Assembly (NCBI GenBank): GCA_013239625.1
Contig: MU054541.1
Coordinates: forward strand, 248,001-312,000
Source of the DNA: Lama guanicoe
Lineage: Eukaryota
Length of the DNA: 64,000 nucleotides
Direction of reading: 5' to 3'
The position numbers and the translations under genes were made by a program. Below, in pieces: positions 19,785 to 59,027 of the stretch (the first letter of the stretch is position 1; the number at the start of each line of letters is the position of its first letter). The notes under the pieces are model-generated. The model had not been told where the DNA came from and did not search any database. It was given only the letters and a program-made list of their open reading frames with translations.

Positions 19785-19970
19785 CTGCTTCCTTCTGTCC
19801 AGCAGTGTCTTCAGTGGAATCCCATTGTTGGGAAAATGGTGAGTGTTCAGGGCCTCTGACTTGGCATCTCCTGGTGGAGAAGCTACAGGCCTCCCCTCCA
19901 TGGTGGTGATGAGTCCCGTCCTTGGCCAAGCACATGGCTGAAGAAGATGAGTCCTGCAGCTCTTGTACCT
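19785..19970 (-). CDS. Butyrophilin-like gene, putative 186-bp ectodomain exon (collapsed IgV remnant)
   Basis: Acceptor CCCCTCTCCCCCACAG, donor GCAG|GTGAGG. Phase 1/1 and stop-free: EVQELQDSSSSAMCLAKDGTHHHHGGEACSFSTRRCQVRGPEHSPFSQQWDSTEDTAGQKEA. Both ends resemble the BTN3 IgV exon at nucleotide level. Confidence 0.55.
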
Positions 19971-20058
19971 CTGTGGGGGAGAGGGGACGGAGAGCTCACT
20001 GTCCTTCACACCTCGATTGGAAAATCAGGAGTCACTCCCTGCCCACTGAGCTGCTTAC

Positions 20059-20600: not shown

Positions 20601-20660
20601 ATTTTCTTCTGATTGACTTGGTCTTGGGATGACTTTGTGATTCAGACACTGGGCTGGGCC
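20601..20660 (-). other. Putative 5' exon of the butyrophilin-like gene, ending in AT of a split start codon (5' boundary unknown)
   Basis: AGAAGAAAAT|GTGAGT strong donor; AT plus G of the next exon forms an in-frame ATG with A at -3; in-frame TGA 14 codons upstream. Confidence 0.4.
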
Positions 20661-52765: not shown

Positions 52766-53122
<357 letters not shown>

Positions 53123-53160
53123 GTCTCCTGTTTTCAGCAATCTTAACACTTTTTACCAAA

Positions 53161-53176
53161 GGCCCTTTTTAGGGCC
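53161..53176 (+). other. Histone 3' stem-loop (H4)
   Basis: GGCCCTTTTTAGGGCC followed by purine-rich HDE AAAGGAG. Confidence 0.92.
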
Positions 53177-55698
53177 GCCCACAACTTTCGGTAAAGGAGC
53201 CTAACACTTAATTCTACAGTGGTTATTCTCTAGGATCTAGCTTTTCTTTTTTTGTCGCCAAATAGTAACGTTAAATCGCAGTTTATGTTCTAGAAAGGTG
53301 AGTATCTCAGCTTGAAGTATCTTGCTGCAGTGTGGTTTTAGGTATAGTCTTGCGCACTATGATACTTCACGTGACAGTGAAAAGGCTTGTGTGTGCTATC
53401 TGCCCCAGAAAGATTTACTCTGGGTTAGGAATGTAGGCAGCGTTCTCGAGTACCAGAAAGACTGGCTTAAACTGCCGGCGATGTAGCGACTGGAGGCTGC
53501 CTTTACCCCGCCTTTCTTCTGTGCTCAAGATGGCGGCGAAGGCGGGGAACAAAGGGGGCCCGCAGCGGGAACCCGCGGCCGGAAGAGGCGAGCTCACGAG
53601 TGGGGCGGGTCGTTCCCCTGGGCAGGAGCGCGCTCCTGTGCTCATGTGGCGTGACGCTGCTGCTCGGCTCTGCCGACCAACACCCTTGTACCAACGGCAC
53701 TGGGGGAAAAATGAAAATTTACACGCGGGGAGACCCCTATATTCTGACTTCCTCTAATGAGCGTTTAAAAAAGTGGTTAGTGTATGTTACTTAACATTAA
53801 TGCCACCTGAATTTAACAGTTGAGTAAGCTGTACACTCAGAATATTTTACGTCACATTAAGTATGCACTATTAAAATAGTTCAATAGTTCCCATAGAATC
53901 ACTCAAACTAAAACCAAATTCCCTAACTTCTAATACTCAGTCCAAATGAACAGATGTTTGTTATGCTGCAAATGTCATCTTAGATACCTGGTTTGCTAAG
54001 TGGAGGGTCCAATCATGCCTTTGTTTCTGTCTCATGTCTCAATCTACAAGTTTTGTCTTCCTCGATTACACTTATTTTTCAGACATTGATTTGCTGTAGA
54101 CCTGGCCTGCAGACTATCTTCGTCTCATTTGTTTCCGAATGGATCATTATCCTTGACTCCTGTACCCTGTATGCCCTGCAAGGTAGAAGTGATTTTTTCA
54201 GACTTAAATGAAATGAAATCATGTTAATTTTCTTGTCGAGGAACGGTTTAAAGATTTTTATGTAAATACTACTGTACAACATCAAGAGCACCTGATGTCA
54301 GGCTTATCCAGATTCAAGATGATGGATCCAGCACTGGCCTAGAGTTACTTAACTGGTTTCCTGGTAAAATCAATTTTCCTCCTTGTGGCCTGCAACTAAT
54401 TTGTAGGGTGATACTTTGATAGCCAGAAAGCAGTGGAGTCATTTGGAATCTTGTCTGTTTTAAAGATACAGACTCCAGTGCTTAAATATGAAATGAATAA
54501 GATGTTACTGGAGCTAAGGTATCAGTTTGAGGAGATGAATTCATATGAGGGTATTAACAAACAAAACAAAGCACATAGCATGTGCCAGGCACTGCTTGAT
54601 GCTATAGAATTATAGCAGTGAACAATTGAATATTTCTGTATTCTTGGACTTTTATTTGTCAGGGTAGGGAAACAAACAAAACAGGTAAATAAAACATGGT
54701 GTTTCAGATGGTGCTATGAAATCCAATGAAGCTGGGGAAGACATTAGTGTGGGGAGGAAGGAGGTGATATTTTAAATGATATGGTAATAGCAAGCTTATA
54801 AGTGATGAGAGGAGAACAGATTGAGAAAGTGAAGTTCCTAATAGAAGACCAAGAAGGAAAGCCTAGAGGTAGCAAGTAATTATTGTGGTTGAGCAGATGG
54901 AGGGCAAGAGGGTGTGGAGGAAAAGGAAACGAGATCTGAGAGGCAAGTGGAGGTGAGTAGTTCCTGTATAACCTTCCTTATAACCCAACACATCTATTAA
55001 AGAGGTACCACTAGTCCTGGTGAGACATGAAAAGATCCCTGGAAAATAAGCCACACGTTGCTTGAATTGGCCAAAGCAGGGAAGTCTAATAGTCACAGGC
55101 ACTAGGTTGTCCTCACAACAGTTCAGGGGAAGATGATTTTAAAAGAGGGGCTTAGATTGTTAAAAGGGGTTTGGAATGTTGGTCACACTGCCAGACAAAG
55201 AAATCCTAATTGGTGTCAAATGCTACTGGCTTTGAGGCCTACTTTACTTCATTCAAGGCCTCAGGATTCTGAGATTCCAAAGTGGGCAGGACCAAGGGCA
55301 CCTTCCAAGCACTTCAACCAGAGGCTTTAGCAACAGCTACTATTTTGGAGGCACTTTCTTTGTGCAGACAACGTCCTAAGTGCTTTACCTGTGTTCTATT
55401 GATCACCCCAGCAATGCCATACAGTTGCTAATTATTATTCCCATTTCAGAGGTAAGGAAATGCTCACAAGAGTTTAAGCAATTTCCCCAAATTTAACATT
55501 CAGGACTGTATCATATCCTGGAGGGTTGCCCCTTAAAAAGTGCTTATAGATTTCATGAACACATGGTTTTAAAATGTATTTAAAATCAACTTTGAAGAGC
55601 AAGAAAGGAGTGTCTTAATTATACGTGGGGTTTAGGGAATTTTCTTCAAGCATCACCATAACATGTACTCGTTTGATGTTCACAAAAATCTGTGTAGG

Positions 55699-56099
55699 TG
55701 TAGGGAGGAAAACCTTCCTTTCGAGGTTCTTTGGCTGACCCATTTGATGATTAACAGGAGGAAAAACAAGGTAGCAACATCTATACCTCCTGTATACCCT
55801 GGAGATACCCAGCAAACTGAGTACATCTACGAAATAGCTGAAGCCACCGCCTTAAATACCATCTTCAACTAAAGACAAAAGATGCTGGGGGTGGGGAGTC
55901 AGTTGTGGAAGGTAACTATGAGAAGCACAGTTCATATGGGTAAGGTTATTATACAGATGTAAATTGTGACTTTTCCACAGATGAGACAACTTAGCCATCC
56001 TCCTCTTCCAGGTTCATCGAGACGCTGGAGGTTTCCCTAATGAATTTCTTACAAAGGTAACTTCCTATTGTTTTCAGAGCTTGTGTCATAAAAATAACC
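55699..56099. mobile_element. Truncated ERV LTR-like fragment abutting the H2B stub
   Basis: Begins TGTAGGGAGGAAAA, LTR-like content, ends abruptly at the H2B junction. Confidence 0.5.
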
Positions 56100-56144
56100 A
56101 GAGCCCTTTTTCGGGGCTGGAGCCGACTTAGCTGGTTCAGGCAT
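56100..56144 (-). pseudogene. Truncated histone H2B (first 15 codons only)
   Basis: Minus strand ATGCCTGAACCAGCTAAGTCGGCTCCAGCCCCGAAAAAGGGCTCT = MPEPAKSAPAPKKGS, then non-histone sequence; no remaining CDS or stem-loop found. Confidence 0.88.
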
Positions 56145-56204
56145 TATAAGACAGAACTACCACCACAAAAAGAACACTGGTAAAATACAACCACAAGCAC
56201 ATAG

Positions 56205-56475
56205 CCTTAGTATTTATTTGGCCTATATGCAAATTACGGATGGCAGAATTACATTCTCTGATTGGCCTTCTCAGCATCGTAACCTCTGATAGGCTGTTAT
56301 CTATTCCATACTCTCATTGGCTCTTTCCTTCGCTCACCCTTACGTAATTTGACCTTTCAACTACAGACTTCCTATGTAAATTAGAAGCGTTTAGATCTGG
56401 CTTTTGATTGGCTGAAATTTGGGTTCGGCCAATAGCACAGGCTGTTTTACCAAACCGCCGCAGTGTATAATAGTC
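56205..56475. promoter_or_regulatory. Bidirectional H2A/H2B promoter
   Basis: Oct-1 octamer ATGCAAAT 56227-56234 next to H2B-side ATAAATA; CCAAT boxes at 56261, 56316, 56407, 56429; H2A-side TATAAT at 56466. Confidence 0.85.
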
Positions 56476-56495
56476 TAGTTTCTTGCGTTTCATAA

Positions 56496-56927
<432 letters not shown>

Positions 56928-56971
56928 NNNNNNNNAAATATCGTGCGTGCAGCTACAACCTTATACCCAAA

Positions 56972-56987
56972 GGCTCTTTTCAGAGCC
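56972..56987 (+). other. Histone 3' stem-loop (H2A)
   Basis: GGCTCTTTTCAGAGCC; HDE-like GAGAGCTTG downstream. Confidence 0.93.
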
Positions 56988-57064
56988 ATCCATGTTTTCA
57001 CATTTGAGAGCTTGTAACTAATTCTAACACTGGTTTAGTCTGCCCACTAGGGAAAAAAAGACAC

Positions 57065-57692
57065 TGCCGGAAGCTGAGAATTCTGTTTTATTTCGTGAGA
57101 TTTCTGAGGACTTCAAGCTCGGGAGGCAGCGTCTCAGATCTGAGACTGCCCTGAAGAAAGGGAAGAGCCAGGATATAGGGGTTTTTGCAACCAAGACGAG
57201 GTAGTGGGAACACCAAAAGACTACCACTAATTAAAACGAGCTATGTCAGAGTAATGAACTTAGTATTTTCTATGTAAGGGAAGATGCAAGGGTCTGGGCT
57301 CTTAAAATTTCTTTTTTTATGCACCGTATCTATCTAGGGCCAGTATGCTGTTCTTAACCATCCTGAGTTTCCACAGGGTGCACCGTTGGAGGTGGCTGTG
57401 GTGGCTGAGGGCTTGGCATCATGGTTGTAGTGGCTTGATAGCTACGTTTTTGTTTTGAGTAAAAGATTTATTCGGAAAGATACATAACTCCATACTGCGG
57501 GCTAACTCATAAGGCCGAAGGGGCTAAGAGGCTTGGGGGTGTTAAAGCAAGTGCCATCTCTAAGGCAAGAGAGAATGACCCAGGCCTGGGAGACACACAT
57601 TCCATAGACAGAATGTGGGCCATTTTACTCAGAAGGGCGAGCGGCCTCCAAACATCCTTAACAGATATGACAGGCAACATTTTCCATTCACA
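57065..57692. mobile_element. ERV LTR-like element(s)
   Basis: TG...TTCACA termini and LTR-like content; possibly nested. Confidence 0.5.
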
Positions 57693-58404
57693 TCTATAAG
57701 CCTTCAACAGTTAAAGCCATTGGATATAAATATACCTTTTTCAACGTGTTATTATCTTGGCTATTTCACATGACTGCTTGGAATGTGGTTCAGGGATACG
57801 GGAGTTTTACGAGAAAATAGCATCGTAAACGGGTTTTAGTTGTGAGGAAGCAAGTTTTGGTACCGTTTACAAAACCTTGAGTAGTCTCCAGATCTTTAGA
57901 GAGGAGAATATTCTATACTGCGGAAAAGGCGGGTGGGGTTGGTAGCTTGGGATATCTTTAAGACATTGAAATAGCAAAATGAGAACCACTGGCAAATCAA
58001 AGATCAGCGCGGGCTCTTCAAATTCTGAACCGAACCATAATCTCATTTAGGCACTACAGCAAAGTCAATCGTTTGGCGCACTGTTTGCCTATCACCTCTA
58101 GCCCAATCGCTTTACCTGTGGCTTCCCAGAGTGGAGATAGGAAGTGGCAGTCCAGGGAACTCCAGGTTCCGTTCAGAAAAAGCAACCGCTGAGAAAAAAC
58201 AATAAAAGTAAATCTCTTCTCAAAAGCTTGGTCCTCGGAATTTTAGGCCACATTACATAGATCTACTGAGTCAGAACTGGCATATTCCACAATCACGAAG
58301 TGGCTCCTTATTTACAATTTGAGATGAGCTGAACTAGAACAGTAGAAAATTAGCTCCTATGGTTAGTAGACTATAACGAAGAGAGGGATTGGAATGTGGA
58401 GTAA

Positions 58405-58530
58405 TTCATCCAATCAGAACCTGTAGTAATTAACCAATCACATCGTTGATGCTTCAGCCAATGGTTTCATTTCGCGGGACTTTTGAAAAACCGCAAGGCC
58501 AATCAGAATGATTCTGAGTGTATATAAAGG
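58405..58530 (+). promoter_or_regulatory. Histone H3 promoter
   Basis: Four CCAAT boxes (~58410-58503) and TATATAAA at 58521. Confidence 0.85.
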
Positions 58531-58582
58531 CAACCTCTTCCTCAAGCCATCAAGTTGTGCGTTTTTCTCCGTACTTCTTGCA

Positions 58583-58993
<411 letters not shown>

Positions 58994-59027
58994 AGTTTTT
59001 CCATCTGTTTAAATCCAACTCAAAAAA

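Follow-up and report, generated by a model that had tools for sequence, protein, structure and literature searches.

A spliced, Ig-less butyrophilin gene in Lama guanicoe whose start-codon exon probably derives from an eroded IgV exon

Introduction

In the place of its Ig ectodomain, one gene of the butyrophilin cluster of Lama guanicoe has a single 186-nt exon, raising the question of where this exon came from and what kind of protein it now begins. The window analysed here, a 64,000-nucleotide stretch of contig MU054541.1, contains the 5′ part of BTN3, a tRNA cluster and histone genes, with the gene in question (the Ig-less BTN gene) lying in between as a fourth, spliced butyrophilin-like gene beside BTN3, on the minus strand and in the same cluster and orientation as the other butyrophilins. 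BTN3, BTN2 and BTN1A1 lie downstream of it on one contig of the same genome, with the true BTN1A1 ~52 kb away. The alpaca cluster is described, in the excerpted text of the published account, as single copies of BTN1, BTN2 and BTN3 (PMC7348870). In databases the gene is present only as an automatic “BTN1A1-like” model. Full-text literature searches returned no description of it, and subscription papers on butyrophilin evolution may mention it; Afrache and colleagues, and Fichtner and colleagues in 2020, have reportedly written on that subject.

The surroundings are those usual for a butyrophilin cluster, with 13 tRNA genes, and histone H4, H2A and H3 genes that are partly N, in the stretches 25536–51914 and 52800–59000. 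A 150-aa stop-to-stop frame at 35438–35890 (+) resembles what we take to be a decayed processed copy of HPF1.

A first-pass annotation had read the 186-nt exon as a collapsed IgV exon, with both ends kept and about half lost from the middle, translated in a new frame and either retained by selection as a linker or left to neutral decay. Here we examine its splicing, its ancestry and its conservation among orthologs.

Gene structure and splicing

The Ig-less BTN gene shares with BTN1A1, BTN2 and BTN3 a phase-1 TM exon, 21- and 27-nt heptad exons and a terminal B30.2 exon, and differs from them in having no leader, no folded IgV, no IgC and no tail after the B30.2 domain (Table 1).

Table 1. Coordinates of exons and exon segments in the window, with the basis of each assignment.
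Feature	Position	Strand	Basis or remark
BTN3 IgV exon, intact, 348 nt	2039-1692	-	1 of nine reference IgV exons
Upstream non-coding exon, main splice form	21089-20876	-	joint 20876 to 19970 (runs X5, X6, X9); contig cover to ~21091
Likely intronic remnant, first ~86 nt of IgV exon	20050-19971	-	old acceptor near 20050
186-nt exon, first coding exon, very probably eroded IgV nt ~87-348	19970-19785	-	splicing and IgV models
Native-frame block, strands C-C', VQELQDSSSSAMCLAK	19968-19921	-	posterior native 0.88-0.99
Likely start codon, GCCATG, from Val codon at IgV nt 141	19935-19933	-	
Shifted-frame block HHHHGGEAC, IgV nt ~218-244, strand D	19911-19885	-	12 settings
QVRGPE block versus IgV NVRASD, probably native frame	19863-19846	-	
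Native 3' end EDTAGQKEA and original IgV donor	19812-19785	-	posterior native 0.93-1.0
TM exon, 165 nt, single hydrophobic helix then KLHREKARE	19297-19133	-	contig joints, hydropathy
Heptad exon, 21 nt, EKLQREL	18809-18789	-	contig joints, sequence
Heptad exon, 27 nt, CWRKAQKVD	18699-18673	-	contig joint, protein P0126
Heptad exon, 27 nt, DWRKARSHA	14584-14558	-	sequence, loose end of X5 contig, P0126
B30.2 (PRY/SPRY) exon, intact, no tail past domain	12535-12018	-	Pfam, PDB matches

The 186-nt exon is real and spliced. It lies between an acceptor (...ccccacag) and a donor (AAGCAG/gtgagg), in phase 1 at both ends, and its open frame reads VQELQDSSSSAMCLAKDGTHHHHGGEACSFSTRRCQVRGPEHSPFSQQWDSTEDTAGQKEA, with three Cys and HHHH; in length, splice sites, frame and composition it is as first annotated. 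Splicing was read from contigs of four runs from four studies, whose RNA status is presumed and which come from a related organism, mostly 95–99% alike. Inclusion of the exon in RNA is borne out, with its upstream joint (20876 to 19970) and its downstream joint (19785 to 19297) each present in three of the four RNA-like runs, the latter a direct splice with no IgC exon between, and with one X9 contig spanning the whole exon and both joints. The joints 19133 to 18809 and 18789 to 18699 are likewise each found in three of the four runs. Contig cover reaches positions above 18600, and the B30.2 exon falls outside the covered region. The acceptor of the upstream exon was read from the sequence, and alternative upstream donors at 20601 and 20537 are seen as loose contig ends.

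Several further traces lie around these exons. The TM exon seems 27 nt longer at its 5′ end (19297–19271, −), with an inner acceptor-like site before 19270 from which, just as in BTN1A1 and BTN2, there would be 10 residues up to the conserved Trp; it is the outer site that is used in the contigs. The intron at ~19460–19370 (−) carries a faint IgC-like trace (EDNGAKLG..GWNRNP versus EDGGIRLE..GWYPEP; 41/500 shuffles with the IgC profile), and gene models of beluga, hare, deer and sheep run on into this intron. Upstream, 20159–20061 (−) weakly matches the leader exon of BTN1A1 together with its donor (z 4.6, 1/200 shuffles, partly low-complexity), a leader-like peptide, LPSACSLAWILCFLIK, can be read at ~20370–20320 (−), and an open, ATG-bearing exon end at ~22215–22175 (−), MGLKEQGESIFKA, matches the start of the dromedary model P0123, with no splice joint to it among the four RNA-like runs.

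The B30.2 exon is recognised by Pfam (PRY 5.3e-20, SPRY 6.3e-27) and matches the B30.2 domains of BTN2A2 and BTN3A3 in the PDB with E values of 1e-61 to 1e-63. Its identity to the B30.2 of the animal's own BTN1A1, BTN2 and BTN3 is 63%, 59% and 55%, respectively. Read from the internal Met, the product matches the Vicugna pacos protein P0126 (XP_072800812.1, 302 aa) over the exon peptide and the TM exon, with a difference of one residue between the two B30.2 domains. Two quick trees place the gene in a clade of its own, apart from BTN1A1, BTN2 and BTN3 (SH-aLRT 99). The automatic name notwithstanding, it was rejected as a BTN1A1 ortholog, the B30.2 domains falling in separate clades in both trees and the true BTN1A1 lying elsewhere on the contig. 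It was also rejected as a TRIM protein, with Pfam finding no RING or B-box on the window exons or the full-length orthologs.

Origin of the 186-nt exon

Scored pairwise against BTN3 IgV alone, the 186-nt exon is marginal, its score being reached by 46/1000 (water), 399/1000 (HOXD70 local) and 87/1000 (global) shuffles; summed over nine IgV exons, 11, 105 and 6 of 1000 shuffles do so, according to the scoring scheme. Standard profile tools are blank, with nhmmer on the window returning nothing at the exon on the coding strand, hmmsearch giving a best E of 0.66 for an Ig signal within it, hhalign a probability of 0.2%, and Pfam no Ig match. Since the BTN3-only comparison was marginal and these tools were blank, custom splice-anchored pair-HMMs were built on nine complete 348-nt IgV exons of the butyrophilin family, taken from 17 matches with partial and more distant ones excluded; their parameters were set by hand, the last three bases were excluded, and some block boundaries were first picked by eye. 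Nine 282-nt IgC exons of the same genome served as the control.

With the donor-anchored IgV profile, the score of the exon is reached by 1–2/400 shuffles using all nine references, 0–4/400 without BTN3 and 5–12/400 with BTN3 alone, and it is in this 3′ part that the likeness first noted against BTN3 stands. Its donor ranks first of 77 strict non-IgV donor-like sites with the IgV profile, and is at background with the IgC profile. A model of the whole IgV exon, applied to the 357 nt upstream of the donor, gives a score reached by 1/3000 shuffles and puts the site at the top of 1190 loose donor-like sites (those remaining after removal of sites within 400 nt of IgV exons), at −0.2 bits compared with −14.3 for the next. 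The DNA homology is collinear and ends at the IgV donor, in phase 1, with the animal's own BTN1A1 the best single template for the remnant (z 5.9).

The peptides of the orthologs, compared as predicted proteins only and hence biased to open frames, point the same way. In a frameshift-aware joint model of seven lineages against IgV DNA, the score is reached by 0/2000 column shuffles, and by 0/1000 when the camelid row is removed, with negative controls for the IgC exons (1462/2000) and the reverse complement (226/2000). The Asian elephant peptide, fetched later and held outside the model, gives 3/2000 shuffles. The ruminant N-termini (24 residues) fit best, ungapped and among all offsets, at IgV nt 87 in the native frame, with 0, 1 and 1 of 300 shuffles for three rows and 29/300 for reindeer, the segment having been chosen by eye. 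An IgC origin was rejected, both the IgC profile and the IgC joint-model control being at background.

If the exon were instead an exonised intron, resembling IgV by chance, the blank profile searches and marginal pairwise scores would be as expected. However, the anchored DNA tests, the ortholog tests that leave the window out, the held-out elephant and the ungapped ruminant match all agree, with the IgC and reverse-complement controls negative, and we regard a chance likeness as highly improbable. Judged by these comparisons, the first-pass reading is upheld in its main point, the 186-nt exon being very probably a collapsed and eroded butyrophilin IgV exon.

Anatomy and reading frame

How the exon collapsed appears to differ from what was first proposed. 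The earlier alignment paired exon nt 30–81 with the start of the IgV exon. Taken alone this pairing does as well as, and no better than, two other placements (summed z over the nine IgV exons 10.0 against 8.0 and 7.7), and it loses only in context, its posterior in the joint ortholog model being at most 0.034 in 12/12 settings. Rather than half of the exon being lost from the middle with the 5′ end kept, the 5′ quarter most likely passed to the intron by a shift of the acceptor, with a further ~50 nt deleted. The segment 20000–19976 falls on IgV nt 57–82 with a posterior of 0.85–0.99, and the intronic remnant taken by itself is modest (36/1500 shuffles; local 23/1000, p about 0.02). On this placement, the polypyrimidine tract and acceptor now in use consist of former L-P-C-H-L-S-P codons, among them the B-strand Cys codon, which has become CGT at ~19988 in the intron (posterior 0.96). 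The position of the ruminant N-termini at IgV nt 87 gives independent backing, and most likely the IgV exon has its first ~86 nt now in the upstream intron, where they form the new acceptor. The F-strand Cys and the C-strand Trp are replaced, leaving neither Ig cysteine.

Within the exon, strands C–C′ are retained in the native frame, as in sloth PSRVMHPDKDG compared with MOG-type FSRVVHLYRSG, and the first 11 codons of this block are probably 5′ UTR in camelids. The Met is placed on IgV nt 141 with a posterior of 0.92–0.96 when all columns are used, and of 0.06–0.17 without the upstream columns. After this block a deletion of ~50 nt with a frameshift leads into HHHHGGEAC, the Glu column of which has a posterior for the shifted frame of 0.78–0.98 over the 12 settings; strand D of BTN3, when shifted, reads HHCREGCS. 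VRGPE returns to the native frame with a posterior of 0.80–0.90 when window codons are used, a call made less sure by the peptide-only model, which puts QVRGPE in the shifted frame, and SPFSQQW is of uncertain frame (0.6 for the shifted one). Across the 12 model settings, 19–27 of the 49 codons counted from the Met are native and 16–22 shifted. The supposed new frame therefore holds for the shifted codons, with HHHHGGEAC as the firm block, and fails for the native ones, and by these alignments the exon is in all likelihood a mosaic, about half or more native and about 40% shifted.

A related possibility is that the exon is an internal linker behind a leader, with the IgV 5′ and 3′ ends kept, the middle half gone and the frame wholly new. 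Besides the 5′ pairing, it draws on the IgV +2 frame, which fits the mole, dromedary and alpaca peptides (z 6.2, 4.9 and 2.8 at d 0.5). The native frame, however, fits 9/9 peptides (z 1.8–5.4 at d 0.5), the joint model gives the 5′ placement its very low posterior, and the gene has no leader, with in-frame stops at three junctions. As coding begins with the 186-nt exon in each of the three splice forms seen, a linker role is unsupported, and this arrangement seems to us very improbable.

Orthologs and conservation

Searches with the B30.2 domain recover an ortholog group at 69–98% identity, none of its members with an Ig Pfam domain, comprising camelids, bovids, cervids, elephant, sloth, rabbit, pikas and the star-nosed mole. 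Named pig, horse, carnivore, primate, bat and murid orthologs were absent from the matches, which is no proof of loss. An ortholog with an intact IgV was not found in 13 matches of 166–529 aa, in 92 matches of 400–2000 aa (best B30.2 identity 66%) or in the 12 of 150 representatives examined, which is weak evidence of absence. P0192 and P0158 were considered as Ig-bearing orthologs and rejected, their V-set lying only after the TM or B30.2, which reads as fusion with BTN3; together with P0269 they are database models, likely artefacts, that fuse the Ig-less BTN gene with BTN3, or BTN3 with the B30.2 of BTN1A1. On these predicted proteins, Ig loss is not specific to camelids and appears older than the placental radiation.

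The same searches return a second B30.2-bearing, Ig-free butyrophilin-like clade (P0043, P0062, P0067, P0068, P0070, P0082, P0325 and P0415; SH-aLRT 99–100), separate from the Ig-less BTN gene; its deer, pig and loris rows show a TM. Butyrophilins are already known to lose domains, and this clade is a second TM–B30.2 group without Ig.

The exon peptide is in one frame in 9/9 full-length rows, at 41–56 codons from the Met to the junction, so that the frame is preserved in the orthologs despite indels, as far as predicted proteins tell. Mean identity over 15 lineage pairs is 42% for the exon peptide, 62% for the TM exon, 82% for the heptads and 76% for the B30.2, the first of these falling in the range expected under neutrality (37–61% for d 0.55–0.25). 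Nonetheless invariance over 17 rows is at least 90% for D4, D6, C17, F34 and A50, and the Met is conserved in 6/7 aligned lineages, pika being one column off. HHHH is found only in alpaca records, with GHHH in camel, HLHR in buffalo and GQHH in sloth. The 186-nt exon is missing from the models of hare (P0185), American pika (P0012), beluga, African elephant and muntjac, and the gene copies of beluga, pocket gopher and black rhino are truncated or fragmentary.

The broken copies and the neutral-range identity of the exon peptide are what a transcribed pseudogene in neutral decay, its frame open by chance, would give. Against this, lineages as far apart as sloth, elephant, rabbit and camelids have the TM, heptads and B30.2 intact and conserved, all nine full-length rows keep the frame, and neutral survival is roughly estimated, from assumed rates, at 2e-6 to 4e-8. 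A decaying pseudogene is accordingly very unlikely, and of the two fates first suggested, selection on the frame is favoured over neutral decay. In these predicted proteins the exon peptide drifts near-neutrally yet its frame is kept, and we are confident that the gene encodes a functional protein.

Start codon and predicted topology

The upstream exon ends in ATG-TAA-G, with a stop just before the junction, and an in-frame stop is present at 3/3 observed upstream junctions, so that the protein likely starts at ATG 19935. The ATG-TAA itself (20882–20877, −) is a minimal upstream ORF in frame with the main ORF and may exert translational control. The Ser-rich segment of the first-pass annotation is present in the open frame, and lies upstream of the internal ATG, where it is probably untranslated. 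Ruminant, sloth and dromedary models start at Mets further upstream. Hydropathy (KD19) peaks at 2.48 at residue 76, in the TM, and reaches only −0.49 in the first 55 residues, with no hydrophobic stretch there that could serve as a signal peptide; translation in camelids is therefore likely to start at ATG 19935 with no signal peptide. A single helix with a basic C-terminal flank and no signal peptide is the arrangement of a type III membrane protein, and an N-out/C-in topology is the probable prediction from these features. AlphaFold with the 17-row alignment gives a model too poor to interpret (mean pLDDT 43, with the B30.2 itself unfolded) apart from one helix at residues 68–128, and the best ESM Atlas match to the sloth N-terminus (0.81) is under the useful range.

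The same ancestry could serve another purpose, with the protein acting as an intracellular B30.2 sensor, either retained in the ER/Golgi or soluble through skipping of the TM, as an innate factor of the TRIM/pyrin or BTN3A3 type with no butyrophilin partner. In four camelid species the RefSeq models (P0001 cluster, 247 aa) leave out the TM exon, the B30.2 is related to those of TRIM11, TRIM21 and pyrin, and retention and loss of the gene are patchy over mammals. Lagomorphs, moreover, are reported in the excerpted text of PMC4271611 to have lost BTN3, Vgamma9 and Vdelta2 and yet keep the Ig-less BTN gene, so that its job is independent of that system. However, no TM-skipping joint occurs among the four RNA-like runs, the heptads are the most conserved part, as expected for coiled-coil pairing, and the B30.2, by identity alone, is well conserved and not fast-evolving. 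An intracellular sensor is thus unlikely, though less so than the other alternatives. For the membrane-tethered protein, action as a dimeric B30.2 adaptor is predicted with confidence that is evenly divided.

Discussion

On balance, we favour an Ig-less butyrophilin whose start-codon exon derives from an eroded IgV exon. Its predicted product is a membrane protein of type III, with the B30.2 domain tethered beneath the membrane. The history would have begun, earlier than the radiation of placental mammals, with an acceptor newly arisen inside the IgV exon at about nt 86, placing the A–B strands and the first Cys in the intron. Some 50 nt would then have been lost with a frameshift, compensating indels restoring the frame; the gene has neither a leader nor an IgC exon, and its ATG would have come from a Val codon. 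Translation from ATG 19935 would give a hydrophilic 68-residue N-terminus, threaded outward by the single helix in the role of a reverse signal-anchor. The TM–heptad helix would pair with itself or with a neighbouring butyrophilin, and the B30.2 would recruit a cytoplasmic protein partner. Selection on the remnant would be for the start codon, the open frame and a short M-x-x-D-K-D-G motif, with none for the Ig fold.

Type III membrane proteins include BCMA, BAFF-R and the LAT/PAG adaptors. The Ig-less BTN resembles these in having no signal peptide, a short Cys-containing N-terminus, a single helix and a basic C-terminal flank, and differs in its B30.2 domain; no sequence relation is claimed, and its own type III topology is a prediction. 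BTN3A2 is a truncated butyrophilin that acts as a partner subunit, with its Ig domains kept and B30.2 absent, of which the Ig-less BTN is the mirror image, keeping the B30.2 and dropping Ig. The leader–IgV–TM–B30.2 butyrophilins of monotremes (P0207, P0270, P0274, P0277, P0278 and P0056) also have no IgC, and their SQPSNVVHLY resembles sloth TQPSRVMHPD, both falling in the same open polytomy (support 88). Unlike the Ig-less BTN they keep leader and IgV, and they are possible intact relatives; among seven templates, however, the IgV fit of the monotreme exons (z 3.5–4.4, 4/6 scored) is no better than that of BTN1A1 (z 2.4–6.2, 3/6 scored).

With BTN3, its adjacent gene, the Ig-less BTN shares two Trp-bearing 27-nt heptad exons. 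The pocket residues of BTN3 include H, K and two R positions, for which the Ig-less BTN reads E, T/A, Q and C, with one R kept. In contrast to the W-H-Y of BTN3 (W350/H351/Y352) it has F-D-P, the H351 and Y352 columns being D and P in 5/5 aligned orthologs, and its B30.2 thus lacks the phosphoantigen-binding histidine. These three residues are named as key in the excerpted text of PMC7348870, with H351 as the key phosphoantigen residue.

A wider proposal is that this is a subfamily ~100 million years old that passed from type I to type III by means of its own dead IgV exon, and that its heptads allow it to pair with BTN1A1, BTN2 or BTN3 and so tune their signalling or secretion roles, for example as a brake on phosphoantigen sensing in alpaca; we put this forward as speculation, and think it doubtful. 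The goat gene LOC102180173 is listed among differentially expressed oviduct genes in the excerpted text of PMC9597788. The “BTN1A1-like” label hides the gene, and can contaminate milk-fat and expression studies.

The alpaca is the non-primate model for phosphoantigen-reactive gamma-delta T cells, and a fourth, spliced member of the cluster, its B30.2 intact and its heptads the best-conserved part, would be a missing variable there, as in cattle, sheep and rabbit. The gene also offers a natural test of butyrophilin function without any Ig domain to bind the T-cell receptor. If the proposed history is true, the gene drew its splice acceptor from Ig codons, its start codon from a Val codon and a new conserved His/Cys peptide from a frameshifted strand. 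It would then be a traceable case in which the exon of a folded domain gave rise to a splice site, to a start codon and to a new peptide that is partly frameshifted, the membrane topology being predicted to have changed as well.
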